Source: an uncultured Candidatus Saccharibacteria bacterium
Lineage (GTDB): Bacteria > Patescibacteriota > Saccharimonadia > CAILAD01 > BJGX01
Direction: 5' to 3'
Assembly: GCA_964552475.1 (NCBI GenBank)
Contig: CAZKFZ010000003.1
Coordinates: forward strand, 24,078-88,077
Length of the DNA stretch: 64,000 nucleotides
How positions within the stretch are numbered: the stretch's first letter is position 1; each line of letters opens with the position of its first letter. Below are positions 4,122 to 42,146 of this stretch, in pieces. Position numbers and translations under genes: made by a program. The notes under the pieces were generated by a model. That model ran no database searches, was not told the DNA's origin, and saw nothing but the letters and a program-made list of their open reading frames with translations.

Positions 4122-4204
4122 AACATTACTCCTTTTAAATACTTGGCTATTATACTATCTGTTGGTTAGTAAGTAAAAAGCCAGGCGGTTAGGCCTGGCT
4201 TGTT

Positions 4205-5047
4205 TTAAATATTTACATACTCTTTTAGGGCATCTCGCCACATACGGCGGTTATAGTGCAGCTCGCGGTCTACGTAGCTACAGTCTAATGCTGTGTAGTG
4301 TGGTCTAGTAGCAATAGCGCTAGTATCTTTACCGGCATAGTACTGCTGGGTAGTTACTGGCGCTACCTTGCAATCTAGGCCAGCGATTTCAAACACCGCT
4401 TCTGCGAGTGTTGCCCAGTTAATAGGTTCTCCTCTATTACAGAAGTGGTAAATACCGCACCTTGGCTTAGTCTGCACTAGATACTTACAAAATTGTGCAA
4501 GATCTATAGCGTAAGTGGGCAAACCCCACTGATCGTTAACAACCGATACTTCATTAAGCTCTTTGCCTAGGCGAAGCATGGTACGAACAAAGTTGTTGCC
4601 GTCGCCATATACCCACGAGGTGCGAACCACGTAGTGGCTATCAACGCCGAGGGCGTATTGCTCACCAGCTTGTTTGGTGGTGCCGTAGACGTTTAGCGGA
4701 TTCACCGCGTCGTCTGGCTTGTAGCCAGTCTTGGCTTTACCATCAAACACGTAGTCGGTACTAATGTAGATGTAGGTGGCTCGATTCTTTGAGCACGCTA
4801 TAGCGATGTTTAGAGAACCATCGGCATTTACTCGCTTCGCGTCGTCGCGATGAGTTTCTGCACCGTCTACATTGGTATAGGCTGCGGCGTTAATTACTAC
4901 ATCGGGCTTGTGAGCGGCAACTATTCCAGCTACTCTCACAGCATCGGTAATATCTACCTGGGTGTGGTCGTAAAAGATCGCCTCAGGCATAACATTTTGT
5001 AATGCCCTACCTAGTTGTCCGTTGGCGCCAAATACGAGTACTGTCAT
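4205..5047 (-). CDS. rmlD: dTDP-4-dehydrorhamnose reductase RmlD
   Basis: 'MTVLVFGANGQLGRAL' Rossmann N-terminus; 280 aa; 4-bp overlap (ATGA) with rmlC. Confidence 0.85.
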   Translation of the reverse strand: MTVLVFGANGQLGRALQNVMPEAIFYDHTQVDITDAVRVAGIVAAHKPDVVINAAAYTNVDGAETHRDDAKRVNADGSLNIAIACSKNRATYIYISTDYVFDGKAKTGYKPDDAVNPLNVYGTTKQAGEQYALGVDSHYVVRTSWVYGDGNNFVRTMLRLGKELNEVSVVNDQWGLPTYAIDLAQFCKYLVQTKPRCGIYHFCNRGEPINWATLAEAVFEIAGLDCKVAPVTTQQYYAGKDTSAIATRPHYTALDCSYVDRELHYNRRMWRDALKEYVNI

Positions 5048-5592
5048 TTGCGTAGCTCACTCAGGTTAGGGTTGTTCTTATCCTTATCAGAAATAATCAT
5101 ACCTTCACCCTTAGCGATCGGCCACTCAATACCTAACTCGGGATCGAGCGGGTTGAGTGCTAACCCTTGCATATTGGGTGACCACTCTAGTTCAAAGTAG
5201 TATAAGTAAACCGAAGGTTCCTTACTGACTGATTGAAAAGAGTTGCCAAGACCCTTTGATACAAATAAACCCTGTCCTCTACGAAGGGTAAAGCCTTGCC
5301 ACTCACCAAAGGTTGGTGAATCAATACGTAGATCGACAATTACCGCATAAACCGTGCCGTTAGCTACAGCCACATATTTGTGGGCGAACTCAGCGTGAAT
5401 GCCTCGCAAAGCACCTTGTACGGTCCATGGTGCGTTTACTTGTGGTCTTTCGCCAAGACTAGGCAAACCAGCCTCAACAAAATCAGACTCACGATAAAAT
5501 TCCATCACCGAGCCACGATCGTCCTCAAAAAGCTTCATGTCTAGAGACCACAAACCCTCAATTTGGGTTGTACTAACTCTTAGATTACCCAT
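5044..5592 (-). CDS. rmlC: dTDP-4-dehydrorhamnose 3,5-epimerase RmlC
   Basis: 182-aa cupin with 'RGIHAEF' (RGLHxQ-type) motif; positioned between rmlB and rmlD. Confidence 0.85.
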   Translation of the reverse strand: MGNLRVSTTQIEGLWSLDMKLFEDDRGSVMEFYRESDFVEAGLPSLGERPQVNAPWTVQGALRGIHAEFAHKYVAVANGTVYAVIVDLRIDSPTFGEWQGFTLRRGQGLFVSKGLGNSFQSVSKEPSVYLYYFELEWSPNMQGLALNPLDPELGIEWPIAKGEGMIISDKDKNNPNLSELRK

Positions 5593-5664
5593 GTTCCCTT
5601 CTCCTCTTTTGGTAAGGTACTAATAGAGTATTATACTTATTTTTTGTTATAAGTCAATATTTTG

Positions 5665-6699
<1,035 letters not shown>

Positions 6700-6798: not shown

Positions 6799-8538
6799 AT
6801 GCAAAGACTCACAAGTCTATCGAGGGGTAAGAAAATCTTAGCTACTCTACTTGGTATAGGGATACTATTATTTGTTGTTCTGGCAATTTTGCGAGTTGCT
6901 TATTTTGGCCGAATTTACCCTGGAGTAACAGCCAATGGAGTTTATTTGGGTGGTTTGACAGCTCAAGAGGCAATGCAAGAACTAAATAGTCAAACCTCTA
7001 GTTACTCAACTAAAGCAATCGAGATAATATTACCACAAGAAAAATCTAACCTTAGTGCCGAACAAATTGGAGTTATTTATAACAACTCAGATGCAGTATC
7101 ACAAGCCGTTAATGTAGGTCGTGAAGGTTGGATGGTAGATAGAATGGTCGCTCAATTTGTAAGTTTATTGGGACAGGCTCCAGACATTACAAGTGTAAGT
7201 TATGACACTCAAAAGCTTGGTAATGTATTGGTAGATATTAACTCTAGGGTATCTAAGCCAGTAGAAAACGCAAAATTTAATATTGAGAACGAGGAGATTA
7301 AAACGCAAGAAAGTATAAAAGGCAGACGTGTAGACTTTGCACTCTCACCACAAGCTCTGGCTAATCATTTTGGTAGACTACAAAATAAATTATTTGTTTT
7401 ACCATTGATGAATGCTGAACCCCAGATAAGTTCACAGGCACTACAGAGCCAACAAAACATTATTGCGCCCTTTGCCAAACAGCCACTTACGCTAACGTAT
7501 GGCGATAAAACTTGGTCGGCCGACATCAATACTATTGTAGGATGGTTGTCGCTACCTAGCTCTAATCAGCCAGTAAGAAATGATATCTTAAATAAAAACT
7601 ACTCTATACGAAAAAGTACCAATAATAATATGGTGTTTTATGATAGAAAAGCTGTAGCTGGTTTTGTTGCTTCACTCGCAGGAGATATAAATGTGGAACC
7701 TATAGATGCAACCCTCACCATTAGTGGTGAACGTGCCACGGTTTTTAAACAAAGTCGCGATGGCAAAAATCTAGATGTAGAAAAGTCTACTGATGAAGTT
7801 ATGAAGCAGCTAGGTTCTAGTACACCTACTGGTGTGCCGTTGGTTGTCGCTACTACTAAGGCCGATGTTAGTGATGACAATATTGAAAAACTAGGTATAA
7901 AAGAGCTTATCTCTGAAGGTGTATCGTACTTTCCGGGTTCTTCAGCTAATAGAATCCAAAACATAAGGGTGGGAACTAGCCGTTTTAATGGCATACTTAT
8001 AAAACCTGGTGAAGTGTTTTCGTTTAATAAATACCTAGGGGAGGTAAGTGCAGCCACTGGCTATGCTGAAGGTATTGTAATACTTGAAAATAAAGAAGAA
8101 AAACAATATGGTGGTGGTCTTTGCCAGGTTTCTAGTACGGCATATAGAGCTGCTTTGCTCGCTGGCCTACCAATTATATCGCGCACTAATCATGCCTTTG
8201 CAGTAAGTTATTATACCGAACCTTTTGGTGTGCCTGGTGTAGATGCAACTATTTATCTGCCCAACCCTGATATGCAGTTTAAAAATGATACTGGGCACCA
8301 TATACTTATTCAAACAGTTTTATCGGGAACAACACTTAGGTTTAAGTTTTATGGCACCAAAACAAAAACAGGTGTTATACGCGGACCTTTCTTTCTGAGT
8401 GGTAGCCAAGACCATACCCAACCGTCCCAAACAGTTTTTTATAGAGATGTACTAGACTTGGCCGGCAACGTTACAAAAACTGACACCACCACAACCTATT
8501 ACAAATCTTCGCTTGATTTCCCTCTGGTAGTAAATTAA
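6799..8538 (+). CDS. VanW-family protein with N-terminal membrane anchor
   Basis: N-terminal TM helix; C-terminal 'YGGGLCQVSSTAYRAAL' matches the VanW-domain signature. Confidence 0.7.
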   Translation: MQRLTSLSRGKKILATLLGIGILLFVVLAILRVAYFGRIYPGVTANGVYLGGLTAQEAMQELNSQTSSYSTKAIEIILPQEKSNLSAEQIGVIYNNSDAVSQAVNVGREGWMVDRMVAQFVSLLGQAPDITSVSYDTQKLGNVLVDINSRVSKPVENAKFNIENEEIKTQESIKGRRVDFALSPQALANHFGRLQNKLFVLPLMNAEPQISSQALQSQQNIIAPFAKQPLTLTYGDKTWSADINTIVGWLSLPSSNQPVRNDILNKNYSIRKSTNNNMVFYDRKAVAGFVASLAGDINVEPIDATLTISGERATVFKQSRDGKNLDVEKSTDEVMKQLGSSTPTGVPLVVATTKADVSDDNIEKLGIKELISEGVSYFPGSSANRIQNIRVGTSRFNGILIKPGEVFSFNKYLGEVSAATGYAEGIVILENKEEKQYGGGLCQVSSTAYRAALLAGLPIISRTNHAFAVSYYTEPFGVPGVDATIYLPNPDMQFKNDTGHHILIQTVLSGTTLRFKFYGTKTKTGVIRGPFFLSGSQDHTQPSQTVFYRDVLDLAGNVTKTDTTTTYYKSSLDFPLVVN

Positions 8539-14938: not shown

Positions 14939-15991
14939 ATGATTACTCATCTTAGTTTGAGGCAGTTTAGAAATCACTCTAAACTAGATTTAGATATAAA
15001 CTCTAACTTAATTACAATTACTGGCCCCAACGCATCTGGTAAAACTAACATACTAGAATCCATATATATTAGTTCACTAACAAAGTCCTTTAAGGTGAGT
15101 GATAATAAACTTATACAGCATAATAAAGATTTTTTTACCATCGACCGAATAGATGATGATACTACTATTCATCTAAGATTCATTCAAACCCCACAGAGCC
15201 GTTCTAAATCTTTAAAAATAAAAAACTCACCAAAACCACTATATAGCTTAGTGGGCCGTAACCCAGTTACTCTTTTTGAGCCAAATGATATGTATTTATT
15301 TATAGGTCTACCAAGTGTGCGAAGAAACTACTTAGATAAAATACTCTCACAAGTAGATAAACTATATCTACAAAATTTGCGCAACTATAAAAAAATACTA
15401 CATCACCGTAATAGCTTACTTAAAAGAGCTAAGAAAGAGACTATATCTAATCTATATGATCAACTATTTGTTTTAAATATACAAATAATAGAACCAGGTT
15501 ATTATTTGTCAAAAAAAAGAGCCGAGTTTATAAAAAACATACAAGGTAGTATTAATAACTATTACCATTCTATTAGTGGTGAAAATAAAAAAGTAGTTAC
15601 CAAATTCATAGCCAGTGCCAAATCACCTCAAGAATTACTTAGTAATATAGAATTGGCTCTAAATATAGATATTGCTAGTGGATTTTCTACGGTAGGTCCA
15701 CATAAAGAAGATTTTAATATTGTTATGGATAGTTATAATCTAGCCGATTCAGCATCACGAGGAGAGCTTAGGAGTTTAGTATTAGCATGTAAGCTATCAG
15801 AGTTAGATTATATAGAAAAATCAATTTCTAAGCGTCCTACTCTTCTATTAGACGATGTTCTAAGTGAGTTAGACAACAAGCGCCAAAAATTTTTACTTAA
15901 TAATTTAGATAAGCAACAGACTTTTATTACTACTACACACCTACCTAGTCATTTAGGCCTAGATTTTCAACATATAGAGTTACCATTATGA
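14939..15991 (+). CDS. recF: DNA replication/repair protein RecF
   Basis: Walker A 'ITGPNASGKTNILESI'; SMC-like signature region 'LLLDDVLSELD'. Confidence 0.85.
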   Translation: MITHLSLRQFRNHSKLDLDINSNLITITGPNASGKTNILESIYISSLTKSFKVSDNKLIQHNKDFFTIDRIDDDTTIHLRFIQTPQSRSKSLKIKNSPKPLYSLVGRNPVTLFEPNDMYLFIGLPSVRRNYLDKILSQVDKLYLQNLRNYKKILHHRNSLLKRAKKETISNLYDQLFVLNIQIIEPGYYLSKKRAEFIKNIQGSINNYYHSISGENKKVVTKFIASAKSPQELLSNIELALNIDIASGFSTVGPHKEDFNIVMDSYNLADSASRGELRSLVLACKLSELDYIEKSISKRPTLLLDDVLSELDNKRQKFLLNNLDKQQTFITTTHLPSHLGLDFQHIELPL

Positions 15992-16266
15992 GTTTAGAAC
16001 CAATTAAAAAATCAATACCTAACACAAGGTATATAAAAGAAGAAAATGTTCTTAAACAAATTAAACAAATTGTTTTAGATGTTACAGGTGTAGAGGTGGG
16101 TGTTCGGTCGCCACATAATCATAAAATTGTATTAATAGTAAATAACTCTTCGGCTGCTAGTGAAATAAACCTTAAACAACAAGAATTATTAAATAAGGTT
16201 AATGATTATTTTTTAAAAACAAAAAATATAGTAATAATAGATAAAATAACTATTCAGCAAATATAG
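15988..16266 (+). CDS. small protein downstream of recF (DUF721-like, by position)
   Basis: 92 aa, start overlaps the recF stop; the call rests on position only. Confidence 0.35.
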   Translation: MSLEPIKKSIPNTRYIKEENVLKQIKQIVLDVTGVEVGVRSPHNHKIVLIVNNSSAASEINLKQQELLNKVNDYFLKTKNIVIIDKITIQQI

Positions 16267-16269: not shown

Positions 16270-17073
16270 TTATTTATCTAGAGGTATACCATCGCCACCG
16301 TAGTCATCTAGGTATATTTTAGAATTACTAGGTATTTTATTACTATCTATATATTTAGCCAAAGTAGGGTTATCGGCAGTCAACACATAAGTATTTCTAT
16401 CTATACCAGTACTATTTAGAAAGTCAGTTACAGTCTTTGCTGTGGCTTTTATTTCACTATCAGGATAAGGAGGTGTTAAGCCCATGTAAAACAGATTTTT
16501 TACCACAACTATAGTATTACTTTTACCATTACTATCAACTATTTTGCCACTTTTTATAACATAATTATCTGTGCTATAAGGTAAGAAGTTTAATATTGTT
16601 TTATTAGTTGGAGTCGGGTCAGTATCTTCAAGTTGTTGTTTTTTCTGATCTTCAGTTAAATTAGAGTATGGTATATATTTTGTTTTAAATTGTATCTTAA
16701 TATCTTTCAACTGCTCACCTTTTACTGATGATATTTTATTGATTGTAATTATATAAACATAATTATTTTTTAATGCATTAAAATTAATAACTAAGTCTTT
16801 ATTGTTAATATTAATGCTTCTAACTAAATCTTTTTCAGCATTTATATCACTTAGAGTTACGCTTTTTAAATCTATTTCCTTATTGAAAGTTAATATCATT
16901 TTATTAGCAGATGTTGGAACTAAGTTATTAGTATTAGGGTTAGTACTTTCTAATTTGAATACACTATTAGACTTATTATTTGAGTACAATAAAGCAATAG
17001 CAAAAACTATAAAGGTAATTATTATTATAATAATAATTACAGTGAAATATTTATTTTTTAGTAAATTATTCAT
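16270..17073 (-). CDS. bitopic membrane protein, possible VirB8/PrgL-like T4SS component
   Basis: Short N-terminal tail, single TM ('FTVIIIIIIITFIVFAIALLY') and roughly 230-aa extracytoplasmic domain; lies after the hydrolase gene as prgL does. Inference from topology and synteny only. Confidence 0.35.
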   Translation of the reverse strand: MNNLLKNKYFTVIIIIIIITFIVFAIALLYSNNKSNSVFKLESTNPNTNNLVPTSANKMILTFNKEIDLKSVTLSDINAEKDLVRSININNKDLVINFNALKNNYVYIITINKISSVKGEQLKDIKIQFKTKYIPYSNLTEDQKKQQLEDTDPTPTNKTILNFLPYSTDNYVIKSGKIVDSNGKSNTIVVVKNLFYMGLTPPYPDSEIKATAKTVTDFLNSTGIDRNTYVLTADNPTLAKYIDSNKIPSNSKIYLDDYGGDGIPLDK

Positions 17074-18218
17074 TACTCAACCCTCATAAATCCAGTTAGA
17101 TATCTAGCATTAACACTATGGGTGGATTGTTTTACCTGATCACTTTCGTTACCACCTATAGTAGTGAAGTTACCAGCTCCGTCATATTCGGTTACAATAT
17201 TTACATGACTAGGATAAGGCATTAAACCTTCTTTATAAATAGCCACGTCACCTGGCTGAGGTTCAAAACCCGCCTCACCTTTCGGGTGGTAGAAGTTGTT
17301 TGTTCTAGCATAATCCAGTATTGCTTGGGCCGAGGCTATCGTTCCATTACCACCACCTACGGTTAATGGTTTTCCAGCTTCTCTAAATATATAACTAACA
17401 AAGTATGCACACCAAGGTGGGTTACCACCACCAGTATATTTAGAAATATCTTGTTCACCACTATTCCAAGACTCTAACTCATCTCGAGCAACACTTACAA
17501 CTGAACTATTTTTATTAATAACAGGACTGTCACATTTGCCCTCACCTATATCAGTGTCTGTAGAAGTAGATGGGTTATTTGGACTACCATTATTAGTTAT
17601 TCCTGCGGCTTGTAAATATCTATCAAATTCAGGTGCTTCATTATATCTAAGTACAATATCTTGACCAGCCCCAGCCGCAATATCGTCTATTACACTTTGA
17701 GCATATTGCCTTGGAGTAATTACGTTATTACCAACTATAGTGTCTAATAATGACGGGTCATCAATGGCAGCAGGATAAAAATGGCTAAGTGCAAGTTTAA
17801 AGATATCGTTACCTAAATCTCTAAATTTTTTCTCATACTCTATTTTTGCTACTGCATCTTGTATAGGCCCAGGTGCATCTTTGGCTCTAGCGTAAGGTAT
17901 GGCTGGTGGGTATGCTTGTTTCACACTATTCCAGGTACTATCTATATACTGATATCTTCCGGATGCCGAAGAGCCACCAGCATCAGCAATATAATCTCCA
18001 CTACCAGAACTTTCATTAAAAGCAATTACTTGTAAAAACCTATCTACATCACCACCTGTTGCGGTTGACGAAGATTCACCTACGCAGTCGGTAGGGTCGT
18101 AAAACGGTCTTTTTTCTATCTCTTTTCTTTGTTGGTTGGTAAGTGCAGAAGATTTAAAAGGTACTAGTAAGAAAACTAGTACTAGTATTATTGAAATTTT
18201 TCTAAACATACTTATCAT
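17073..18218 (-). CDS. secreted bifunctional peptidoglycan hydrolase (lysozyme-like + CHAP), PrgK/VirB1-like
   Basis: Start placed at the internal Met of signal peptide 'MISMFRKISIILVLVFLLVPFKSSA'. Central 'SGRYQYIDSTWNSV' resembles the transglycosylase-like 'G-x-YQF...TW' motif. C-terminal CHAP features: 'PPWCAYFVSYIF' Cys and 'PSHVNIV' His. Confidence 0.6.
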   Translation of the reverse strand: MISMFRKISIILVLVFLLVPFKSSALTNQQRKEIEKRPFYDPTDCVGESSSTATGGDVDRFLQVIAFNESSGSGDYIADAGGSSASGRYQYIDSTWNSVKQAYPPAIPYARAKDAPGPIQDAVAKIEYEKKFRDLGNDIFKLALSHFYPAAIDDPSLLDTIVGNNVITPRQYAQSVIDDIAAGAGQDIVLRYNEAPEFDRYLQAAGITNNGSPNNPSTSTDTDIGEGKCDSPVINKNSSVVSVARDELESWNSGEQDISKYTGGGNPPWCAYFVSYIFREAGKPLTVGGGNGTIASAQAILDYARTNNFYHPKGEAGFEPQPGDVAIYKEGLMPYPSHVNIVTEYDGAGNFTTIGGNESDQVKQSTHSVNARYLTGFMRVE

Positions 18219-18220
18219 TG

Positions 18221-21200
18221 TTAATTTCCTGTTACTGACCAGTGCCAGGCCTCTGAAGGTAGGTTTTTTAATCCATATTCTTGGGCATGTTGTACCATCC
18301 AATTAAAACAAGGTGAGCCTCCGAAATTAAACGCCGAACCACCATTACAATTGAAGTCTATTGCTAATCCTTTTTCATGATTCGATGACCCTGGTTCAGC
18401 GGTAGGTGGATTACAGCTACCACCGCTACAATTTTGGTTATACAAATCAACCTGTTCTTCATAAGACCTAAATCCACCTCCACCCATTATTATTCCGGCG
18501 GCCTGTGCATCTTTTAGTAGTTTATTGAGTTGACTAGCTAAAGATACATTTATATCTATTACACCCCCGGCAGGTGCGGCTACGTCACAAACCATTATTT
18601 TATTTGCAGAAACACCGCCAGGACCATAGGTTTGAGCAACACCATTTACTAAGTTTGGACCTGTACTAGTAGTAATGCCGGGTTCATTTGGGCAAGGCGT
18701 TCCACTAGTGTCTGCATCAGCATTTGGTTCACCACCTATCGGTCCTGTTGGGGTTGATGTTTTAGCATAAATACTTTGGTTATCTTCATCACTACTTAGA
18801 GATACCATTTGGTCGAGTAAAGTATTGTAGTAAGTGTACATTCTATATCGTATAGGTAGTTTATTTTCTTCAATATTAAAGTCTTGTGCTTGTTCTAGTA
18901 TTATTTTACAATCATAAAACTTCATAAATTCACCATCTGCGTCATTGTCGGCTCGATCAACCCTATTTACAGGTGTGACATTACCATTTGCATCTTTAAA
19001 AACTCCTCTATGCCATTCCGGGAAGAATACAAACCACTGAACAGCATTAGCATTAGGATACTTTGCCCTAATGCTAGCTTTTAGTGCCTCGTCATTTAGC
19101 TCATTAAATTTCTTTGATTTAAGTTTGAAATATTGTGAGGTTGGTATCTTTTTCTTAAAACACTCATCATAATGTGTGAGTTTTACTCTATCGTTCTCTG
19201 TGCCTGTGGCGCCACTCTTAATATCTTCAATAACCTTTGCATTATCTAACATATCAAAACTATTAAAATCCTGAGGAGGTATACCGGCGGTATCAATTTT
19301 TAGATATTGGTCACCATTAATACTTGCAGCAAAGGCTTTGTTGTGTTGACCAAATCCGTAGTACAGAGCCGAGCTATGTATGTTTGCCAAAGATCTTAAC
19401 GGGTTTAGAACTTCTTTAAATAATGAACTTGCAGTCTTCATTGCAGTTTTTGGTGTAATGGTATTTTGGGCAATAATACTACGTGCTGATCTGATGTTTT
19501 CACTAGCAAATAATCTATAACCTATACCGTTTTCTTTCTCTTCATTACGACGAGTGTTTTCACTATCTAGAGCTACTTGTCTTGCTTCCACTTCAGTTAA
19601 AAATCTACCACCTATCCTCAAGAAATAATCATTCATAAGTTGTCTAAAACCAGCCGCCTGCCTATTGTAGTTGTCTGGTCCCGACTCTAACCCACTTACT
19701 GCTGTGACCGACCCTGTTCGTACATAAGAAGTAATAATTTCTTTTAGACCAAAATCTTCTATACTATTAAAAACACCCTGTGAGTTATTAACAATCGCAA
19801 GCTTTAATAATTGATAACTTGGTTGAATAAGTTCATCACCAAGTAATAACAGTGTCTTATTGTTATCTGTTAAAAAAGTACAGGATAGTAATAATAAATC
19901 TACAGATGGATCATCGGTTAAATCTGTTTGTCTGGCATTATAAGCTCTAGTAGATGTAGCTTCAGGATTTTGTTCTACTCCACGCAGTTCATTATAAACA
20001 TCGAGCTGATACGAAGTACTACTAGACCAATTATCTTGTTGAGCAATAGTTGCATTATTTTCTACATTACTAAGTTGGTCGGCATTGCGAGTATCGGCCA
20101 TTGTTAATACTTTTATAGCACCACGCTCGGTACTAGCTAACCTACTTTCTATTGCTTTTCTTGCATTACTTGCAGCAGCTTCACTACGAGGTGTATTACC
20201 TAGGTCTAAAAAAGCATATGTAAATGGACATATAGTATTTGCAATACCAGCCCTTACTAAGTTTTTTTCTACAGAGCTTGTTTGTGGCGTATACGAATCT
20301 CTTTCGGGAATGTTTAAATACTTACCTACCGATATATCGTAAGGACTAGTGCCGTCAGCCATATCTTCATACATTTTATTTATACCAGCCACTAGATCTT
20401 GTTTATTTTCTTTAAAAGGTATTTTATTGTCAGGGTTAGTATTATTATATGCTGTCACAGCATCTCTATAGTTGTTTTGAAACTCGGTTATTTGACCTTG
20501 ATAAGATGAAAAGTCTATTGTTTCTTCGGTAGTTGGGGTTATTCTACCGATTGTTTTGTTAAAAACATAGCGATTCACCTCATCTCTACTACCTCTAAAT
20601 TCTTCAGTATCTTTTTTGCCAGCATAGTCTAGATGGATATTTGCTAATTGATTTATTTCTCTAGTAACAGGTTGGCGAGCCATCATATTAAATATTGGAT
20701 ATTGTTTTTGGATACAATAGCTAGCAGCTTGGTTAGAACCCAACTGATTTAAAGGTATTACTTCTCTTGTTCTTTTATTAAAAACTTCTTTTGGTACATA
20801 TCTAGTTTTACCTTCAGAATTTATTTTGAGTTGGAGTCTAAGCTCATACACGCAACCAGCATTATCTAAGGTTTGATACCGCGCTTGTCGCCAGTCTATT
20901 TGTGATAACCTATCTAACGTTGTGCCTGGTTCAATAGTTGATGGGTTAGCGGCAACTGCAGTATTTGGGCCTTTATAATCTACCTCTCCAGTATAGGAAA
21001 GGGCTCTTATACTTGCTTCTAAAGCACCTTTACTGAAAGCCTGTGCAACATCTATACCAAACTCACGAATCTTTGAATTTGTTAAGACTGCCTTAACAGC
21101 ATCCCATGGGTTTTGAATAAGATAGACGATAATAAAAATTGGCACCATAGCGATAGCTAGAATACCGAAAGCAATAGCCACAAAAGCCATTTTGTGTTTT

Positions 21201-21679
21201 GATACTTCTTCACCAACTTTTGCTCCAATCTGAGCACCAGCAGTTCCTCCAAGCGCTGCCCCTGCTGCTGCTCCAGCTCCTTTAAGTGCTGTGTTTGATA
21301 ATTGTCCTTCACGCTGAGCTTTTTTTTCTGGCGACTCCTTGTCTATTTTATCTACGGCTTTTAGGGCTTTGTCGGTACCTCCACCACCCTTCCCGCCGGA
21401 GGCGGCTTTATCAATAGCTTTATTCGCTATTTTATTAACCTTTTGACCACCAGTATCATCTTTTTGTATACCACTACCACCCATACCTTCCATACCTTTA
21501 GGTAGTCCTTCGGTTGGGCTCAGTCCAGATCCAGTAATAGCTTTTGGTCCGCCATCTTGTTTACCTTTCTCTTTTGAAAGTGGGCTTACGGGTAAATCGG
21601 ATGCACCAGCAAGGCCACTAGGCTTAGCAGCCTTGTTGTTTGTGTCATCGTCTGGTAATTTTGTTGCGGTTGCAGGCAT
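18221..21679 (-). CDS. giant (1152 aa) membrane-anchored protein with C-terminal M15 (VanY-like) peptidase domain
   Basis: Gly/Ala/Lys-rich disordered N-terminus, one TM helix ('MAFVAIAFGILAIAMVPIFIIVYLI'), about 900-aa extracytoplasmic region. C-terminal 'GGGFRSYEEQ', 'SNHEKGLAIDF' and 'EAWHWS' match the M15 Zn D,D/L,D-peptidase motifs. Confidence 0.6.
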   Translation of the reverse strand: MPATATKLPDDDTNNKAAKPSGLAGASDLPVSPLSKEKGKQDGGPKAITGSGLSPTEGLPKGMEGMGGSGIQKDDTGGQKVNKIANKAIDKAASGGKGGGGTDKALKAVDKIDKESPEKKAQREGQLSNTALKGAGAAAGAALGGTAGAQIGAKVGEEVSKHKMAFVAIAFGILAIAMVPIFIIVYLIQNPWDAVKAVLTNSKIREFGIDVAQAFSKGALEASIRALSYTGEVDYKGPNTAVAANPSTIEPGTTLDRLSQIDWRQARYQTLDNAGCVYELRLQLKINSEGKTRYVPKEVFNKRTREVIPLNQLGSNQAASYCIQKQYPIFNMMARQPVTREINQLANIHLDYAGKKDTEEFRGSRDEVNRYVFNKTIGRITPTTEETIDFSSYQGQITEFQNNYRDAVTAYNNTNPDNKIPFKENKQDLVAGINKMYEDMADGTSPYDISVGKYLNIPERDSYTPQTSSVEKNLVRAGIANTICPFTYAFLDLGNTPRSEAAASNARKAIESRLASTERGAIKVLTMADTRNADQLSNVENNATIAQQDNWSSSTSYQLDVYNELRGVEQNPEATSTRAYNARQTDLTDDPSVDLLLLSCTFLTDNNKTLLLLGDELIQPSYQLLKLAIVNNSQGVFNSIEDFGLKEIITSYVRTGSVTAVSGLESGPDNYNRQAAGFRQLMNDYFLRIGGRFLTEVEARQVALDSENTRRNEEKENGIGYRLFASENIRSARSIIAQNTITPKTAMKTASSLFKEVLNPLRSLANIHSSALYYGFGQHNKAFAASINGDQYLKIDTAGIPPQDFNSFDMLDNAKVIEDIKSGATGTENDRVKLTHYDECFKKKIPTSQYFKLKSKKFNELNDEALKASIRAKYPNANAVQWFVFFPEWHRGVFKDANGNVTPVNRVDRADNDADGEFMKFYDCKIILEQAQDFNIEENKLPIRYRMYTYYNTLLDQMVSLSSDEDNQSIYAKTSTPTGPIGGEPNADADTSGTPCPNEPGITTSTGPNLVNGVAQTYGPGGVSANKIMVCDVAAPAGGVIDINVSLASQLNKLLKDAQAAGIIMGGGGFRSYEEQVDLYNQNCSGGSCNPPTAEPGSSNHEKGLAIDFNCNGGSAFNFGGSPCFNWMVQHAQEYGLKNLPSEAWHWSVTGN

Positions 21680-21739: not shown

Positions 21740-23605
21740 CTACCCAGTTACTTCTTCTACAGAAATGTCTTTACTATCATTCGCACTCGTTACTGCCATA
21801 CTTTCACTTATTAAGTCTTGTGGGTTGGTAGTAATAAGCTCGGTTTCCGTTGGGCTAGCTATAATATGAAGTATTATGTGGCTTAAACCAGCAAAAAATA
21901 ACCCTTCACCCACAGGGAACTGACTAAGTCTTTTCTTCTCTTCACTAGTAAGCTTGAATGTCTCAGCCACCACATCAACAGCCGCTGGATTTTGTTTAAG
22001 TAAAAGCTGCAAACTAGAGTTGTTTACAATTGCTCGGCCTAATCTAGTACCTAAGAAATCTTCGACATCTTGTGAAATAGTCGTAAGACCCAAGAAATAT
22101 TTTCGAGCACGTTTTGCAATAGAAAACATAAACATAGCTGAGTCTTGGTACTGCATAAGTTGCCATGCCTCATCTATAATAAGTACCCGTTTTTTCTTCT
22201 CAGACTTTACTCTGTTCCAGACATAATTAAGCACAATATACATACCTATGGGCCGCAATTCGTCTTCCAAATCTCGAATATTAAATACTACAAACGGATT
22301 ATTTAGATTTACATTACTTTGCTGAGAAAATATGCCAGAAAAAGTACCCTCGGTAAATCTACGAAGTCGTGCAGCCAGTGCTGGGCCATTTCCACCCATT
22401 TCGTTTAAGTTATTATATAGATCTAACATTACTGGAGGCTCAGCGGTATGAGTAAGTGGGTCGTTAGTAATGCCTTTTTGGGCGTAAGTATTAATGAGCG
22501 CAATGTCTAGATCAGATTCTTCTGTGGGTGAAAGCTCACCCATCATTAGTCTAAGTAGACCATGGAGCATTATGATGTTTGCTCGCAGAGCATTATCGGC
22601 TTCGTCTGAGTCTATAGCTGTAGGGATATCAAAAGGGTTCACATGGCTATCACTAGTTAGACTAAGCTGTAAAAAGCTACCACCTACAGCATCGCATAGT
22701 GTTCTATATTCGTTTTCTGGGTCTATTACAATTATTTCGGTACCAAACATCAAAGAACGCAAAGCTTCAAGTTTTACAGCAAAAGACTTACCAGCACCAG
22801 ACTTGGCAAATACCACCATGTTGGCATTTTCTAAACTAAATCTATCAAATAATACCAAGCCGTTATTGTGACGGTTAATACCATAAAGAATTCCCTCCTC
22901 ATTGCTAAGGTTGGCGGTGGTGAATGGGAAAGTAGTAGAAATTGCGCCGGTGTCCATATTGCGTTTCACACCTAGTAGGTCGCTACCTAGTGGTAGAGTT
23001 GAGGTAAAACCTTGTTCCATCTGTATAGTAGCCGGCTTTGTATATATAAGACTTGTACCCAAAACTGACTCTATTTTTTTTACTAACTCCTCAAGCTCCT
23101 CAAGTGTTGTTCCATAAATCGTTACGTACAAACCAAGCCTAAAAAACCTATCTTCACCTACCTGTAATTTATCACGCAATTCTTCGGCATCACTTAAAGA
23201 TGCTTCAAGAGCTGGGTCTCTAACTTTACCTTTTTCGGCATTTATAGATTGATTAGCTTCTAGTTGACCAACTTTTTTCTTAAGATTATCTAGTACTACC
23301 CTACTCTCAACCGGTTCTATTGCTAGGCTTATATCTATTATTTCGTCCATATTTATAAGAGGACTAAGCCAACCAGTAAATAAGCTCCTAGGATAAGCAT
23401 ATACAAATAATGTTCTGGCAAAGCGCGAGCCGATACGTATATAATTCGCTTCTATTTGTATAGAGCTAGGTGCTATTACGTCACGAAGTGTTACAACACC
23501 CTGGCGATATATTTGTTGAGCTTGTTGTTGAGCATTGGCATTGGCTTGTTGTTGGGGTGTAAGAGTTGGGGTTGTCGGTTGTGCTGGTTTTTTACCAAAT
23601 ATCAT
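21740..23605 (-). CDS. VirB4/TraC/PrgJ-family T4SS ATPase
   Basis: Walker A 'AKSGAGKSF', Walker B 'VLIIDEAWQL'; N-terminal 'RTLFVYAYPRSLFTGWLSPLI' VirB4-domain motif; Q-rich N-terminal tail. Confidence 0.85.
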   Translation of the reverse strand: MIFGKKPAQPTTPTLTPQQQANANAQQQAQQIYRQGVVTLRDVIAPSSIQIEANYIRIGSRFARTLFVYAYPRSLFTGWLSPLINMDEIIDISLAIEPVESRVVLDNLKKKVGQLEANQSINAEKGKVRDPALEASLSDAEELRDKLQVGEDRFFRLGLYVTIYGTTLEELEELVKKIESVLGTSLIYTKPATIQMEQGFTSTLPLGSDLLGVKRNMDTGAISTTFPFTTANLSNEEGILYGINRHNNGLVLFDRFSLENANMVVFAKSGAGKSFAVKLEALRSLMFGTEIIVIDPENEYRTLCDAVGGSFLQLSLTSDSHVNPFDIPTAIDSDEADNALRANIIMLHGLLRLMMGELSPTEESDLDIALINTYAQKGITNDPLTHTAEPPVMLDLYNNLNEMGGNGPALAARLRRFTEGTFSGIFSQQSNVNLNNPFVVFNIRDLEDELRPIGMYIVLNYVWNRVKSEKKKRVLIIDEAWQLMQYQDSAMFMFSIAKRARKYFLGLTTISQDVEDFLGTRLGRAIVNNSSLQLLLKQNPAAVDVVAETFKLTSEEKKRLSQFPVGEGLFFAGLSHIILHIIASPTETELITTNPQDLISESMAVTSANDSKDISVEEVTG

Positions 23606-23606
23606 T

Positions 23607-24488
23607 TTACTTTTGCCCTCCAGCTATATTAGGGGGTTGGGGATTGCTAGGTTGACTTGGTTGTGCGGGATTAGAGTTAGTTTGTCTATTTGCAGCCGAG
23701 TATAGATCGTCTGGGACTGGTTCTTTAGGTTTTTGGCTTGGTATTTTGGCCAGACCATCTTTTCTTAGGACTGCCGGAGTACTCATGTCAGCTATATCAG
23801 TAAGTGATTGGTTTTGGCTTTCTGCTACATTATAGGAGTTGTAAAACAACTCTATAACTTCTTGTGTGTTGAGTATAACTGTCCTTACACCTATCTGCGC
23901 CAAGCCTTGAGCTACCTGGTTAGTCCTCTGCAATAAATCATTCTTGCGTTGTTCGTACTCTCCACTCGTTTGAGTAACCTCAGCCGAGTCACTAGATGCT
24001 CCACGTAATTTAGTGAATATATTCGCTTTAGTTACAACATTTACATAGTATGGAACAACCACGTAAAAGCGTTTTTCCATAATATTTACTTCGTTTAGGA
24101 GACTTTTTATATTGGTAACGTAGTCATCCATTAGATCGGCTAGTAATGGATTAGGTTGATCACTTTGTATTACCTCTAGCTTACTTAGGTAATTATCTAA
24201 ATCTATCTTGCGTGACTGTATTACTATTTGAATAGGAAAATGCAAACCGTTTAGGAAACCCTGAAAAGCAAACTCAATAGCTTCTTTCTCGTCTGGGCTT
24301 TTAAGATCGAAATTAGTTGGAGAACATAGTATTACGGCCCGTAAACTACCATCACGCATCACCACGATACCATCTCTTATTTCTGAAAAAGGCAAATGAC
24401 TTTGAGTGCTCATCTGCTTGTTTTGTTCTTTTTTTGGTGGAGTGACCGAGTTTACGTATTCACGCTGTTGGGGGGTAATCTGTGCCAT
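23607..24488 (-). CDS. hypothetical protein translationally coupled to VirB4 (T4SS-associated)
   Basis: 293 aa, Pro/Gln-rich C-terminus; stop and the VirB4 start are in TAAAATG coupling arrangement. Confidence 0.4.
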   Translation of the reverse strand: MAQITPQQREYVNSVTPPKKEQNKQMSTQSHLPFSEIRDGIVVMRDGSLRAVILCSPTNFDLKSPDEKEAIEFAFQGFLNGLHFPIQIVIQSRKIDLDNYLSKLEVIQSDQPNPLLADLMDDYVTNIKSLLNEVNIMEKRFYVVVPYYVNVVTKANIFTKLRGASSDSAEVTQTSGEYEQRKNDLLQRTNQVAQGLAQIGVRTVILNTQEVIELFYNSYNVAESQNQSLTDIADMSTPAVLRKDGLAKIPSQKPKEPVPDDLYSAANRQTNSNPAQPSQPSNPQPPNIAGGQK

Positions 24489-24573: not shown

Positions 24574-25416
24574 TTACTGCCGTACTTGCGCACTAGTACC
24601 TGGCGAAAGTTGTTGAGTTTGTTGGTTAGCTCTGGTTGCTACTTGTTGAATAGTAAGACTACTACCTTGCATTGCAACCTGACTAGCAGCTGGGTTTATA
24701 GTTTGTAATTGTTGCGGCACTTGGTTTACAGAAGGTTGACTATTGTTTGGTTTTCGTAAAGCTTGTCGAACTTGGGTGGCTGCATTTTGGCGCGAATCTT
24801 CCTTGGCGTTTTGTAGTAGTTTTTCAACCGTATTAGCTCTTTGACTAGTTTCATCTAAAACATCATCTTTTGGTGTAATTAACCTATGAGCGGTGTCTAT
24901 AGTATTATTAGAGCTTTCTTCTGTACCAACTTGTTGAGGGCCAATAATTCGTTTGGCATAAATAGATGCTTCATTATCTCCTTCGTGTAATTGTACACTT
25001 GGGTCTTTAAAGTTACCACGCGTATCTATAATAGACGCAAGCTGTTTAAGTTGACCAACCGAAACAGATTGATCTTTCTCTAGATTTTCTTTGGGTTTTT
25101 CTACATCTTTTACAATAACCTCTTTTTTATCATCTTTTATCCAGGTGCGAGTTCTAGGTACAACTAAGAATCTAAAAAACGCCACCATATAGTCTTCAAA
25201 AGGTACTCCTTCACGCGACCCAAACCCAAGTAAAAGGAAAAAACCTGTTACCGGAAAAGCAAATATAAGAGCGACTATTATAGAAAAGCTAAATATACGC
25301 CACATTAAAAATCCCCACATCAGCGCAATTATTACGTATATAAATTGCTTTACTGAGAGCGGCCCTAGTATTTTATCTTCGGTCTCTACATTTTGTGGTA
25401 CTTTGTATTCACCCAT
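24574..25416 (-). CDS. VirB3/PrgI-like small membrane protein with Gln-rich C-terminal tail
   Basis: N-terminal hairpin of two TM helices ('FIYVIIALMWGFLMWRIFSFSIIVALIFAFPVTGFFLLLGF'); sits between the VirB6-like and VirB4 genes as prgI does. Confidence 0.4.
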   Translation of the reverse strand: MGEYKVPQNVETEDKILGPLSVKQFIYVIIALMWGFLMWRIFSFSIIVALIFAFPVTGFFLLLGFGSREGVPFEDYMVAFFRFLVVPRTRTWIKDDKKEVIVKDVEKPKENLEKDQSVSVGQLKQLASIIDTRGNFKDPSVQLHEGDNEASIYAKRIIGPQQVGTEESSNNTIDTAHRLITPKDDVLDETSQRANTVEKLLQNAKEDSRQNAATQVRQALRKPNNSQPSVNQVPQQLQTINPAASQVAMQGSSLTIQQVATRANQQTQQLSPGTSAQVRQ

Positions 25417-25460: not shown

Positions 25461-27710
25461 TTATGGTCTCACAACTCTGTTATTATTAAGATTTGCATGA
25501 GCTACACTTTGGTGAACTGTAGGAGATGAGTTAGGATTGAGCCTCTGTTGTTTAGCAACTTCTCCAGCGTGCATTTGGTCGTAAGCAATTCTTTTATGAT
25601 GAATATCCAGAGGAACTCCAGTAGGCGCCGGAGGTGTGGCACTATCGTTTGCAACCTGTCTTGTTGTTGCTTCATATAGGTTAGTATAAGCAATTCGTTC
25701 TCTATCAGCCGGTGTAACGCCTGCTGCTTGACCACCATCGGTTCTTGCTTGTTTTTCTACATCCCATGCAATCACCGATTCTTGGTATGTTCTTCCACCT
25801 GTCTCGTGAGCTATCTTATCAAAATCTGCTCTTTGTTTGGCGTTTAGTGGTGGTAAACCAGCATCAAAACCTTGTTTGCCTTCAACTAACTTGTCTCTGT
25901 ATGCTTTCTGAAGTACTTTCTTGGCAACCTTGGCATCTGGTGTTGATTCACCATTCTTTGTTTGACGCGATAAAGCAATTTGATCATCAACATCCATAAG
26001 GCCAATATCTTTTTTCTTCGCCTCTTCAACTTTGTCATCGGTTCTGAGTTTATTTTGCTTAAAACTTCTTCCTAGCTTCGTATTGCTACCACGAAAAGCC
26101 GCACTAGCACCCTCAAACCCCTTAGATTTTAGCTCAGCAAGCTTGCCTTCTTGACCACTCTTCTTCACAGCACCTTTACCAGCGCCAATTGCAGCTTTAC
26201 CCACTCCTGTATTTGCAACAGCTTTACCTGCTGCTCCCATAATATCACCACTAAGTTTGAGCGTTTTTGGAACCAAAGCAAGTATAAGAACAGGTACAAA
26301 TATAGCAATCAAATTAGTTAAGAAGTTCGCCACAGCACCCTGGAATCCTCCAGAATCAAACAAACCATTTTGTAAAAGATTTACAAATATAGCTCCTATA
26401 GCAAACAAAAGATTTACCAATAAGAACATAATAGATAGCTTTATCATGTACTTCCACCACTGCTTAAAGAACTTCTCGGTGTTTGGTAATACCCAAGCAG
26501 CAAAAGCTATCGGAGCAAACAAAACCAACCCAACTAGTGCTAAGTAACGTAGCATTAAATAGAAGAAAGCAATTATCGCCACTATTAGGCCTATTATTTC
26601 GGCAATTTGTAGCATTACAAACTGCCCAATTGTCTGGAATATACCACCTGCAGAAGGATTGACACCGCAAGTTGGTACAAAAAGGCAAGCAAAAGCTTCG
26701 CCTGGTGTTGGAGGAGCACCACCTGTGCCACCTGGAACATTAAAGCTTTGCAGTAAAAACTGAGGTAGTGTACTACCTAAGATATTTCCCAAATCTAAAA
26801 TAACTTGACATATGAGTAATGAAAACTGCGTAAGTATAATTGCCGCTATTAACTTGGGCAAGGTCTTTTTAATAGTATAGTTATCTAAACCTGGTATTGC
26901 CACAAAATTAGCAATAATGATAAATAGAAATATTAGTATATAAAAAGAATTAGCTAGAGTAATCATGGCGTTTACACCATCCTTTAGCTCTACTTGAACA
27001 CTTGAGGCGCCAGAATTACCAACTAAAACAGGGTTCTCTAATAATCCTGTCATTGTATCAATAGTAGTACCTAGTGCCTCAACTAAAAAGTTCTGTACCG
27101 GACAAACTATAAAAGTTAAAGGGCTATTAAGAGTGTCCTCACAAGCATCTAGAGCTTCTTCTTCGCTAGCTTTAGCATCTAGAGCTTCTAATAGATCATC
27201 TGTGAGAAAACGAGGTGCCGCTCCTGTATATCTTGCTTCAACATCAGTACCCTGAAAATCATCATAATCACCACCATCCCATGGAAAACAATCAGTGGGC
27301 TTAACTACAGAACAAAATGTTTTGTCTGGGTCTGAGTTGTTTTCACCACCTTTAAAAGCTCTATCATAATTACGAAAGTTAGATAGACCTATTTGGTCTC
27401 CCCCACTAGCAAACGGATTAGTCACACTAAAACTTTGCCTAAGCTTGGCTACAATAACTCCATCTACTAAACCAAAAGAAATATAATCACCCGTATTCTC
27501 TACATAAGAAGGGTATCCAGTCACTTCACTCCAATATGGATCGTATTTGTATACCTCATCACCACAATCAAGCTCACCAGATGAATTAAACGAGAAAGTA
27601 TCATCACCACCACAAGCTGCATGAGCTTTGTTGGTAAATATAATCATACTAAAAAAAACAATAACCAACGACAGAATTGGTAAAAGCAAAATACGGGAGA
27701 GCTTTTTCAT
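25461..27710 (-). CDS. VirB6/TrbL/PrgH-like polytopic membrane protein
   Basis: Signal peptide, about 240-aa Cys-containing extracellular domain, 5-6 TM helices, about 280-aa charged C-terminal domain; first gene of the minus-strand T4SS-like operon. Confidence 0.5.
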   Translation of the reverse strand: MKKLSRILLLPILSLVIVFFSMIIFTNKAHAACGGDDTFSFNSSGELDCGDEVYKYDPYWSEVTGYPSYVENTGDYISFGLVDGVIVAKLRQSFSVTNPFASGGDQIGLSNFRNYDRAFKGGENNSDPDKTFCSVVKPTDCFPWDGGDYDDFQGTDVEARYTGAAPRFLTDDLLEALDAKASEEEALDACEDTLNSPLTFIVCPVQNFLVEALGTTIDTMTGLLENPVLVGNSGASSVQVELKDGVNAMITLANSFYILIFLFIIIANFVAIPGLDNYTIKKTLPKLIAAIILTQFSLLICQVILDLGNILGSTLPQFLLQSFNVPGGTGGAPPTPGEAFACLFVPTCGVNPSAGGIFQTIGQFVMLQIAEIIGLIVAIIAFFYLMLRYLALVGLVLFAPIAFAAWVLPNTEKFFKQWWKYMIKLSIMFLLVNLLFAIGAIFVNLLQNGLFDSGGFQGAVANFLTNLIAIFVPVLILALVPKTLKLSGDIMGAAGKAVANTGVGKAAIGAGKGAVKKSGQEGKLAELKSKGFEGASAAFRGSNTKLGRSFKQNKLRTDDKVEEAKKKDIGLMDVDDQIALSRQTKNGESTPDAKVAKKVLQKAYRDKLVEGKQGFDAGLPPLNAKQRADFDKIAHETGGRTYQESVIAWDVEKQARTDGGQAAGVTPADRERIAYTNLYEATTRQVANDSATPPAPTGVPLDIHHKRIAYDQMHAGEVAKQQRLNPNSSPTVHQSVAHANLNNNRVVRP

Positions 27711-27801: not shown

Positions 27802-28395
27802 ATGCAATTTATTTACAGACCACTACTTGCTGCCCAGTGTGGAATACTAGACAATCTACCTAATGGATCTAACTTGTGCCAAAACGGTCTATCCCTTAAT
27901 GATGTTATTAGTCTGTTGGCTGGCTATATTGTGACCCTGATAGGTCTTATTTTAGCAGTTGTTATATTATATTGCGCTGTCGAGATTGTTACCTCGGGTG
28001 GTAGCCAAGAGCGAATAAAGTCGGCCAAAAATCGTCTTACCCAAGCTGCCATTAGCTTGGGCTTACTAATATCTTTTAGAGCAATAATTGCGGTCTTTGG
28101 TATAGATGGTGGTAATACCGGTGCGGGCGCCCCAACACTGTTTAATGGCGTAGATGAGTTTAGTCTTGAGGGTGTAGAGAAGTTAATTGCTAATGCTGCA
28201 CAGATACTTATGATGGCAGTAGGCGCATTTTCGGTAATATTTATAGTGGTTGGTGCGGTACAATATATTACTTCGGCTGGCAACGAACAAAGCGTAGCAA
28301 ACGCCAAGAGGACAATTACCTACGCTGTAAGCGGGCTTATACTCGCACTTTCTACGGTCGCAATCATTACGTTTATTAATACTCAGTTTTTTTAA
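27802..28395 (+). CDS. VirB2/TrbC-like pilin-family protein carrying two tandem pilin modules
   Basis: Two internal copies of the module shared with the three downstream paralogs: hydrophobic helix, 'SGGSQERIKSAKNR' / 'SAGNEQSVANAKRT' loop, second hydrophobic helix. Confidence 0.5.
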   Translation: MQFIYRPLLAAQCGILDNLPNGSNLCQNGLSLNDVISLLAGYIVTLIGLILAVVILYCAVEIVTSGGSQERIKSAKNRLTQAAISLGLLISFRAIIAVFGIDGGNTGAGAPTLFNGVDEFSLEGVEKLIANAAQILMMAVGAFSVIFIVVGAVQYITSAGNEQSVANAKRTITYAVSGLILALSTVAIITFINTQFF

Positions 28396-28818: not shown

Positions 28819-29196
28819 ATGGAGAATAAAATGACATTATCTAAAAAAACGCAAAGACTAGCAATTGTAACAGGTAGTAGTGTAGTTGCATTGGTCCCAA
28901 CAGTAGCGTTGGCAGCCGACACTACTCAAGATGCTGTAGATGCCGTACAGCCCGCCTCGGCCGCTACTGGCGACCTGCAAAGCAATATTAAAAACATTAT
29001 TAACGCCATGCTCTTAGTTATTGGTATTGTGGCAGTAATAATGCTAATTGTGGGCGGTTTTAGATATGTAATAAGTAATGGCAACGAAAAGGCTGTTACT
29101 GGTGCCAAAGACACTATACTATATGCAATTATTGGTATTGTTGTAGCTCTACTTTCATTTGCTATTGTAAACTTTGTGCTTGGTCAGTTTAGTTAA
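28819..29196 (+). CDS. VirB2/TrbC-like pilin paralog
   Basis: Signal-like N-terminus plus 'IVGGFRYVISNGNEKAVTGAKDTILYAIIGIVVALLSFAIVNFVLG'. Confidence 0.5.
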   Translation: MENKMTLSKKTQRLAIVTGSSVVALVPTVALAADTTQDAVDAVQPASAATGDLQSNIKNIINAMLLVIGIVAVIMLIVGGFRYVISNGNEKAVTGAKDTILYAIIGIVVALLSFAIVNFVLGQFS

Positions 29197-29228: not shown

Positions 29229-29582
29229 ATGAGAACTAAAATTAAAACACTTTCTGCAATAACTACGGGGTATGTAGTTCTTGCGGCTACTAGAGTCTAT
29301 GCAGTTTCTAACCCCGCTCAAACGGGCGCCAACAAAGCTAAAGACCCAAGCCAACCCACCGATTTACTTGCAAATGTTAAGCTTATTACTAATACCCTTC
29401 TGCTTGGAATAGGTGTAATATCTGTCATTATGATAGTTATCGGTGGTATACGTTACGCGACCTCTGGTGGTGACGAAAAAGGCACAAAAGGCGCCAAAGA
29501 CACTATTTTATATGCCGTTATTGGCCTTGTGGTGGCGCTTCTTGCATTTGCTATAGTTAACTTTGTACTAGAAATTTTCTAA
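29229..29582 (+). CDS. VirB2/TrbC-like pilin paralog
   Basis: 'VIGGIRYATSGGDEKGTKGAKDTILYAVIGLVVALLAFAIVNFVL'. Confidence 0.5.
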   Translation: MRTKIKTLSAITTGYVVLAATRVYAVSNPAQTGANKAKDPSQPTDLLANVKLITNTLLLGIGVISVIMIVIGGIRYATSGGDEKGTKGAKDTILYAVIGLVVALLAFAIVNFVLEIF

Positions 29583-41728: not shown

Positions 41729-41732
41729 TACG

Positions 41733-42134: not shown

Positions 42135-42146
42135 TGGTGTAATTCG

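Follow-up and report, generated by a model that had tools for sequence, protein, structure and literature searches.

The origin-proximal type IV secretion system (T4SS) of Patescibacteria derives from monoderm conjugation machinery of the MPF-FATA type (PMC12102498). Southlakia epibionticum requires it for epibiotic growth (PMC10633639), and the function of the T4SS of Saccharibacteria has been described as completely unknown (PMC11665869). Here we analyze two adjacent genes in the operon of such a T4SS, located in a 64,000-nucleotide stretch of an uncultured Candidatus Saccharibacteria genome (the window, to whose positions all coordinates refer). The first gene (18221-21679, minus strand) encodes a membrane protein of 1152 residues, designated the giant protein, and the second gene (17073-18218, minus strand) encodes a secreted two-domain hydrolase of 381 residues. 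Together they probably constitute the peptidoglycan-remodelling module of this Gram-positive-type, MPF-FATA-derived T4SS, equivalent in function to VirB1 or PrgK.

The gene arrangement is already published for S. epibionticum, and the window is a new environmental member. In S. epibionticum, SEML1_0005-0011 were all scored essential by transposon sequencing (Tn-seq; Wang et al. 2023, Cell; PMC10633639). According to the tables of that study, recF is followed by SEML1_0005, which encodes an exported protein with an immunoglobulin-like (Ig-like) domain, 0006, 0007, 0008 (VirB4), 0009, 0010 (PrgI), and 0011 (VirB6-like). SEML1_0006 comprises 643 residues, with two lysozyme-like domains and a cysteine protease; SEML1_0007 comprises 1113 residues, of which only residues 951-1105 are annotated, as Hedgehog/DD-peptidase, and its best Foldseek match is a 'Peptidase M15B domain-containing protein' (PMC10633639). 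The peptidase and lysozyme homologues just downstream of virB4 in S. epibionticum have already been read as a VirB1 substitute (PMC12102498).

The window locus has the same order as the S. epibionticum locus, namely recF, small gene(s), the Ig-like protein, the lysozyme/cysteine-peptidase protein, a DD-peptidase/M15B-like protein of about 1100 residues, the C-terminal and N-terminal parts of VirB4, PrgI, and the VirB6-like protein. Both loci are origin-proximal, both have pilin genes nearby, and neither has an annotation for the central region of its giant protein. The 267-residue Ig-like protein of the window corresponds in position to SEML1_0005, which is essential. The hydrolases differ, in that SEML1_0006 carries domains of the GH73 and phage-tail-lysozyme types plus the cysteine protease in 643 residues, whereas the window protein carries one SLT-like domain and one CHAP domain in 381 residues. 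Unlike the cultured S. epibionticum, the window lineage belongs to a clade of environmental metagenome-assembled genomes (MAGs).

The enzyme set of the window is also reminiscent of PrgK of Enterococcus faecalis pCF10, which contains a LytM metallopeptidase, an SLT domain, and a CHAP domain and is targeted to its T4SS via PrgL (PMC11323569). Like the window pair, PrgK is encoded in a T4SS operon and combines an N-terminal helix anchor with a LAS-fold metallopeptidase, SLT, and CHAP. Specifically, the predicted domains of the window pair are the PrgK triad split over a membrane-anchored polypeptide and a Sec-secreted polypeptide: PrgK has the three domains in one 871-residue chain, whereas the window has them in two genes. 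Moreover, the metallopeptidase of PrgK is of the M23/LytM type and degenerate, whereas that of the window is of the M15B type with intact ligands, and PrgK, targeted through the VirB8-like PrgL, is devoid of a counterpart of the 786-residue central domain of the giant protein. Monoderm VirB1 proteins are typically SLT plus CHAP (PMC12102498). An earlier reading made from the sequence only had regarded glycan-, amide-, and peptide-cleaving activities as more than a VirB1-type enzyme needs; the composition of PrgK and of the monoderm VirB1 proteins contradicts this.

The two-domain layout of SLT and CHAP is present in VirB1 proteins of the TraG (pIP501), TrsG, and CD419 types, which belong to MPF-FATA T4SSs (PMC12102498), and in the window hydrolase. 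The TraG, TrsG, and CD419 types have a membrane anchor, whereas the window protein has a predicted cleavable signal peptide, and its SLT-like domain is closer to PF06737 and phiKZ gp144 than to the canonical SLT domain. The window does not have SLT and CHAP in one membrane-anchored chain; the anchor sits on the separate giant protein.

Domain architecture of the two proteins

The giant protein is a predicted bitopic membrane protein. A Kyte-Doolittle scan reveals one hydrophobic segment (approximately residues 161-192), in which the sole transmembrane (TM) helix is placed at residues 164-188 (21116-21190). The Lys and His residues flanking the TM helix suggest an N-in/C-out orientation, with residues 1-163 (21191-21679) as a presumed cytoplasmic tail. 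The tail is rich in Gly, Ala, and Lys (G30/A25/K24 of 165 residues), poorly conserved (24-56% identity among orthologues), and predicted to be disordered (predicted local distance difference test (pLDDT) of 23-38 in the full-length AlphaFold2 model). On the other side of the TM helix, a conserved central extracytoplasmic domain of 786 residues (residues 190-975; 18755-21112) is connected by a low-complexity, Pro/Gly/Thr-rich linker of low pLDDT (residues 976-1040; 18560-18754) to a C-terminal VanY/M15B zinc peptidase head of predicted LAS fold (residues 1041-1152; 18224-18559). Full-length homologues number 18, with 47-91% identity. The full-length AlphaFold2 prediction from a 19-sequence alignment has a pLDDT of 50.5 and is unusable as a model.

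The fold family of the head (M15B/LAS) is secure, as judged from hidden Markov model (HMM) matches, structure profiles, and motifs. Pfam VanY (PF02557) matches residues 1044-1138 with an E-value of 1.4e-12 (48 bits versus a cutoff of 25), and the protein also matches the NCBIfam models of LdcB and VanXY and the solved structures of LdcB/DacB. When a profile is built from the head alone, it matches VanY, LdcB, YodJ, and VanXY as well as the phage endopeptidases LysB4 and Ply500, at E-values from 1e-13 to 6e-5; the E-value against the VanY and LdcB structures is about 1e-13. The head contains the SxHxxGxAxD motif as 'SNHEKGLAID' (residues 1099-1108; 18356-18385), the ExxH motif as 'EAWH' (residues 1143-1146; 18242-18253), and the substrate-binding Arg1071 (within 18452-18475). 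R1071, S1099, H1101, G1104, A1106, D1108, E1143, and H1146 are invariant across 12 aligned VanY-type heads. In alignments with solved enzymes, the residues S1099/H1101/G1104/A1106/D1108/R1071 fall on PGTSEHQLGLAVD. Neither the HMM alignment nor those with PDB entries reach E1143-A-W-H1146, and the ExxH motif is assigned by its pattern and by established knowledge of M15B enzymes, in which ExxH provides the catalytic Glu and the third zinc ligand.

The fold family does not define the bond that the head would cleave, because the solved relatives span carboxypeptidases and endolysin L-Ala-D-Glu endopeptidases. LdcB/DacB, VanY, VanXY, Ply500, and LysB4 have the fold family and the SxHxxGxAxD motif of the zinc site in common with the head, and probably its ExxH motif as well. 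They are small stand-alone enzymes or catalytic domains of endolysins, whereas the M15B domain of the window is the C-terminal head of a T4SS-linked membrane protein.

The hydrolase gene is translationally coupled to the giant-protein gene. The open reading frame (ORF) in its mechanical definition (17073-18302, minus strand) encodes 409 residues, starting with a TTG inside the upstream gene and overlapping it by 82 bases. The start is assigned to the ATG at 18218, which gives 381 residues, because the N-termini of the homologues agree with it, an AGGAA lies 8 bases upstream, and it follows the upstream stop codon by 2 bases. Residues 1-25 (18144-18218) probably form a Sec-type signal peptide, as read from the hydrophobic N-terminus, the SSA|LT cleavage site, and a sequence devoid of a lipobox Cys.

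Residues 265-357 of the hydrolase (17148-17426) form a predicted CHAP amidase/peptidase domain. PF05257 matches with an E-value of 7e-10 (39.5-39.7 bits versus a cutoff of 26), and an endolysin family of PHROGs matches the same domain with an E-value of 9.5e-15. The codons of Cys270 (17409-17411) and His338 (17205-17207) and a GGNES motif (17139-17156) belong to this part of the gene.

The N-terminal domain (residues about 50-200; 17619-18071) belongs, at the level of its family, to the Transglycosylase-like/SLT lysozyme superfamily (SLT/GH23-like), as judged from homology and motifs. The domain of the window protein alone has no Pfam match at E ≤ 0.01, nor at 0.1. Within the family, PF06737 (Transglycosylase-like) is matched by 22 of 26 members and SLT by 8, and the SLT threshold is exceeded by an orthologue in locus L002 that is 59% identical to the hydrolase. 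A match of the family profile to the lytic transglycosylase gp144 of phiKZ (3bkh; E-value 3e-4) spans the catalytic Glu-Ser and the GxxQ motif, and a transglycosylase family of PHROGs matches the domain with an E-value of 2.4e-4. The gene contains the codon of the putative catalytic Glu69 (18012-18014) and the GRYQYIDSTW motif (17931-17960). All 26 sequences share E69, S70, G87, Y89, Q90, C270, H338, and N357.

The sequence-only reading had described the two products as a membrane-anchored protein of 1152 residues ending in a VanY-like M15 domain and a secreted lysozyme/transglycosylase-like plus CHAP protein, both encoded inside a T4SS operon. This observation is confirmed by PF02557, the LdcB and VanXY matches, the motifs, and the single TM helix for the former, by PF05257, PF06737 at the family level, and the signal peptide as read from the sequence for the latter, and by the Pfam and NCBIfam matches of the neighboring genes. 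Loss of the M15 zinc ligands or of the Cys/His pair of CHAP, which the reading had named as the sign of inactive domains, is not observed; these residues are intact and invariant.

The central domain of the giant protein was modeled with AlphaFold2 from a 51-sequence alignment that includes distant members, with a pLDDT of 88.1 and a predicted TM-score of 0.90. The model is mostly α-helical with two small β-sheets, and the domain contains six Cys residues. No relative was found by sequence searches in Pfam, NCBIfam, PHROGs, or the PDB, and no relative of the fold was found in the PDB (by Foldseek) or BFVD, consistent with the earlier description of a long extracytoplasmic region lacking a recognizable motif. 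Structure prediction, which had been suggested as a way to identify the middle domains, thus yielded a confident model and no fold relative. Searched exhaustively with a profile, 1.84 billion representative proteins yielded only 45 matches. Those that carry names come from Saccharibacteria, 'bacterium', or Patescibacteria MAGs, where they are listed as hypothetical proteins or as M15 or M23 metallopeptidases. No protein named Southlakia, Nanosynbacter, or TM7x was returned by the exhaustive profile search, two cluster look-ups, or a word-indexed profile search limited to 8000 candidates, the last of which added only mid-distance members of the giant-protein family. In the literature consulted here, we found no description of the central domain or of the recombining hydrolase cassette described below.

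The central domain is the conserved core of the giant-protein family, and it always follows VirB4. Its identity within the near family is 55-65%, and it is better conserved than the head; the tail and the linker, and in some members the head, have diverged or been replaced. The giant-protein gene lies directly after the split VirB4 in every relative examined, from 90% down to about 25% identity, with several distant members in the range of about 25-33%. Among species-representative genomes, the closest loci come from MAGs titled Candidatus Saccharibacteria, with 57-90% identity and identical gene order. The most likely task of the central domain is to dock on, or to scaffold, the T4SS; we infer this association from the strict synteny and from a conservation above that of the enzyme head.

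Three candidate resemblances of the central domain were rejected. Its best BFVD match is a tape measure protein (E-value 0.037, probability 0.08, TM-score 0.07), and a PHROG tape-measure match spans the VanY head only; a tape-measure-like reading of the giant protein is rejected as homology and is at most an architectural analogy. The α-pore-forming toxins AhlB and HblL1 appear among the Foldseek matches in the PDB with a probability of no more than 0.04 and a TM-score of about 0.07. An internal duplication was considered as well; two β units look alike in their secondary structure, but comparing thirds of the domain with hhalign gives probabilities below 0.3%.

Exchange of heads and downstream genes among relatives

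Comparison of close relatives indicates that recombination exchanges the head, together with the hydrolase genes downstream of it, as cassettes. Two giant proteins, P0007 and P0016, are 95.8% identical over 759 central residues and have unrelated heads, one of the VanY type and the other with an H-x6-D...H-x-H motif. Conversely, P0013 and P0016 have a central identity of 68.8% and a head identity of 98%. The same pattern is seen in DNA. Two loci, L009 (6001-11536) and L010 (80-5463), are 90% identical from codon ~166 to codon ~931 of the giant-protein gene, and beyond codon ~931 no DNA similarity between them is detectable through the head and the downstream genes. The breakpoint lies shortly before the linker, close to where the central domain ends. 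Downstream, L009 has an SLT-like plus CHAP gene followed by a Big_5 gene, and L010 has a Phage_lysozyme2 plus M23 gene followed by a gene for an unrelated protein.

Across the family, the head is of the M15B type, another probable LAS type, M23, M74-like, or PF26571, or there is none. The probable LAS type is that of P0013, P0016, and P0017, whose H-x6-D...H-x-H heads match Hedgehog-signal only non-significantly (E-value 0.18) and are assigned as probable for that reason. The second gene encodes SLT-like plus CHAP, Phage_lysozyme2 plus M23, GDSL plus Phage_lysozyme2, or a VanY-containing protein of 813 residues. Distant members have M23, M74-like, or PF26571 heads, and their partners are GDSL plus Phage_lysozyme2 or VanY-containing proteins. 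Three giant proteins, P0080, P0177, and P0180 (L012:7001-9808), comprise 935-943 residues and end right after the central domain. The genes of these headless variants immediately follow VirB4, within a complete operon; the gene after them encodes at least 490 residues.

In one distant relative, the hydrolase slot is occupied by a 598-residue protein (L006:12517-14313) with a weak GDSL esterase match and Phage_lysozyme2. Speculatively, this protein would be compatible with a pair of de-O-acetylase and lysozyme.

Proposed role of the gene pair

The proposed remodelling module would work as follows. The giant protein would insert into the membrane by its single helix, with the disordered tail in the cytoplasm. 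Its outer 786-residue domain would dock on or scaffold the T4SS, by analogy with PrgK and PrgL, and would carry the M15B peptidase on a flexible linker. The head would cut peptide stems or cross-links. The hydrolase, exported by Sec, would cleave glycans by its SLT/GH23-like domain and act as an amidase/endopeptidase by its CHAP domain. Both proteins together would open a local gap in the peptidoglycan, through which the channel and the VirB2-like pilus would cross the wall. The wall that is cut may be that of the cell itself, that of the host, or both. Saccharibacteria synthesise their own peptidoglycan, a point that we count in favor of the remodelling module.

Several points weigh against such a module. 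LdcB-type M15B enzymes trim stem peptides and do not open the wall. The window giant protein is linked to SEML1_0007 by synteny, size, and C-terminal fold class only. The whole hydrolase set is replaced between relatives whose central domains are 96% identical, which is unexpected for enzymes tuned to their own wall. In PrgK, which has a degenerate LytM and a regulatory CHAP domain, activity is confined to the SLT domain (PMC11323569), so intact motifs are no guarantee of activity.

Alternatively, the enzymes may be directed at the host. If the head and the secreted enzyme acted on host peptidoglycan at the contact site between epibiont and host, with the cassette matched to the chemistry of the host wall, the T4SS or pilus would breach the host wall, or muropeptides and nutrients would be released; this differs from the remodelling module only in the wall that is cut. 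The swaps between P0007 and P0016, between P0013 and P0016, and between L009 and L010 fit adaptation to variable host walls, as do the diverse head and second-gene types of the family; the essentiality of the T4SS for epibiotic growth is a further point in favor of a host-directed function. Peptidoglycan hydrolases are, however, notoriously modular and interchangeable, so that neutral replacement would produce swaps too, and we regard a host-directed function as possible but clearly less than even in likelihood. The sequence-only reading had raised, besides tools aimed at a host cell wall, the idea of effectors. Classical translocation through the T4SS is unlikely, given the N-terminal anchor of the giant protein and the Sec signal peptide of the hydrolase; the two features may be compatible with action on the host wall after surface display. 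Overall, that interpretation is partly supported.

The PrgK precedent, with its LytM and CHAP domains, also bears on whether all the enzymes are active. One or more domains could be catalytically silent, with a regulatory or structural part, and the giant protein could be mainly a structural subunit of the T4SS. The headless members in complete operons imply that the core protein can do without its head, and the central domain is better conserved than the head, both of which argue for such an arrangement. On the other hand, the canonical catalytic residues of the head, the SLT-like domain, and CHAP are all invariant in the lineage, unlike those of the degenerate LytM domain of PrgK, and we regard silent domains as an unlikely explanation. 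Finally, both proteins could be housekeeping autolysins for growth or division of the cell that merely adjoin T4SS genes. Essentiality in S. epibionticum would fit a role in division as well, and the region is origin-proximal, with recF, dnaN, and dnaA. This explanation is nevertheless highly improbable, given that the position after VirB4 is strictly kept, with coupled junctions, across very divergent relatives, that the central domain is confined to a T4SS context (45 representatives among 1.84 billion proteins), and that swaps between close relatives are not expected of housekeeping enzymes. Of the roles weighed here, the peptidoglycan-remodelling module of the T4SS remains our preferred one.

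A bolder proposal would make the central domain an unrecognized, Saccharibacteria-specific subunit of the T4SS, possibly a stand-in for the missing VirB8/VirB10-type scaffold, that displays an exchangeable head at the interface between epibiont and host. The head and the downstream hydrolase cassette, swapped by recombination, would then be a determinant of the host walls that can be breached, and hence of the host range. We consider this proposal doubtful as a whole. If the cassette type tracks the chemistry of the host wall, it would allow the host range of uncultured Patescibacteria to be predicted from their genomes. The components that would cut the wall offer the most tractable approach to the essential T4SS of Saccharibacteria, with a confidently modeled core domain devoid of a detectable fold relative, intact catalytic sites, and a sharply bounded swapped cassette as testable handles.

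Neighboring genes and other features of the window

The operon is transcribed from the minus strand in the order VirB6-like, PrgI, VirB4 N-terminal part, VirB4 P-loop part, giant protein, hydrolase, and Ig-like protein, with tight or overlapping junctions. Pfam matches identify the VirB6/TrbL-like membrane protein (25461-27710), whose relatives have PF19590/PF12666 in the VirB6-like/PrgI region, the PrgI/VirB3-like protein (24574-25416), the TraC-like N-terminal part of VirB4 with 293 residues (23607-24488), and its P-loop part with 621 residues (21740-23605). The split VirB4 (21740-24488) matches the CD1110-type VirB4 of NCBIfam with an E-value of 4.5e-114. The two halves are one base apart, and the split is not a frameshift artefact, because it is conserved in all relatives examined. 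The last gene of the operon encodes the Ig-like (Big_5) protein (16270-17073, minus strand), probably exported or anchored; the stop of the hydrolase gene and the start of this last gene overlap. A scan of the operon for promoters and terminators gave counts equal to the shuffle expectation. No relaxase or type IV coupling protein was seen among the ORFs scanned, which do not exhaust the window.

Three genes for VirB2-like pilins are divergent from the operon (27802-28395, 28819-29196, and 29229-29582, plus strand) and match PF18895 with E-values of 9e-17, 1e-10, and 6e-10, respectively. The first pilin gene, encoding 197 residues, is far longer than the others (125 and 117 residues) and has two stretches matched to the pilin model.

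On its other side, the operon directly adjoins recF, dnaN, and dnaA. An ORF of 92 residues (15988-16266, plus strand) overlaps the stop of recF and has no Pfam match; its positional equivalent in locus L008 has a weak match to DciA (PF05258). The ORF may encode DciA, the helicase operator that replaces DnaC/DnaI.

Also near the origin, a gene on the plus strand (6799-8538) encodes a cell-wall-associated protein of 579 residues that contains a VanW domain (E-value 4e-42) and two stretches of PG_binding_4. Its neighbors are a dTDP-rhamnose (rmlABCD-like) gene set (3261-6663) and a glycosyltransferase of the GT4 family. In the remainder of the window, the G+C content, about 0.31-0.45 in the background, peaks at 0.50-0.53 at 48001-50000 and 58001-60000. 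The only Rfam family found in the window is tRNA, and five tRNA genes (Met, Val, Leu-tag, Arg-tct, and Leu-taa) are clustered within 813 bases (41655-42467, minus strand).

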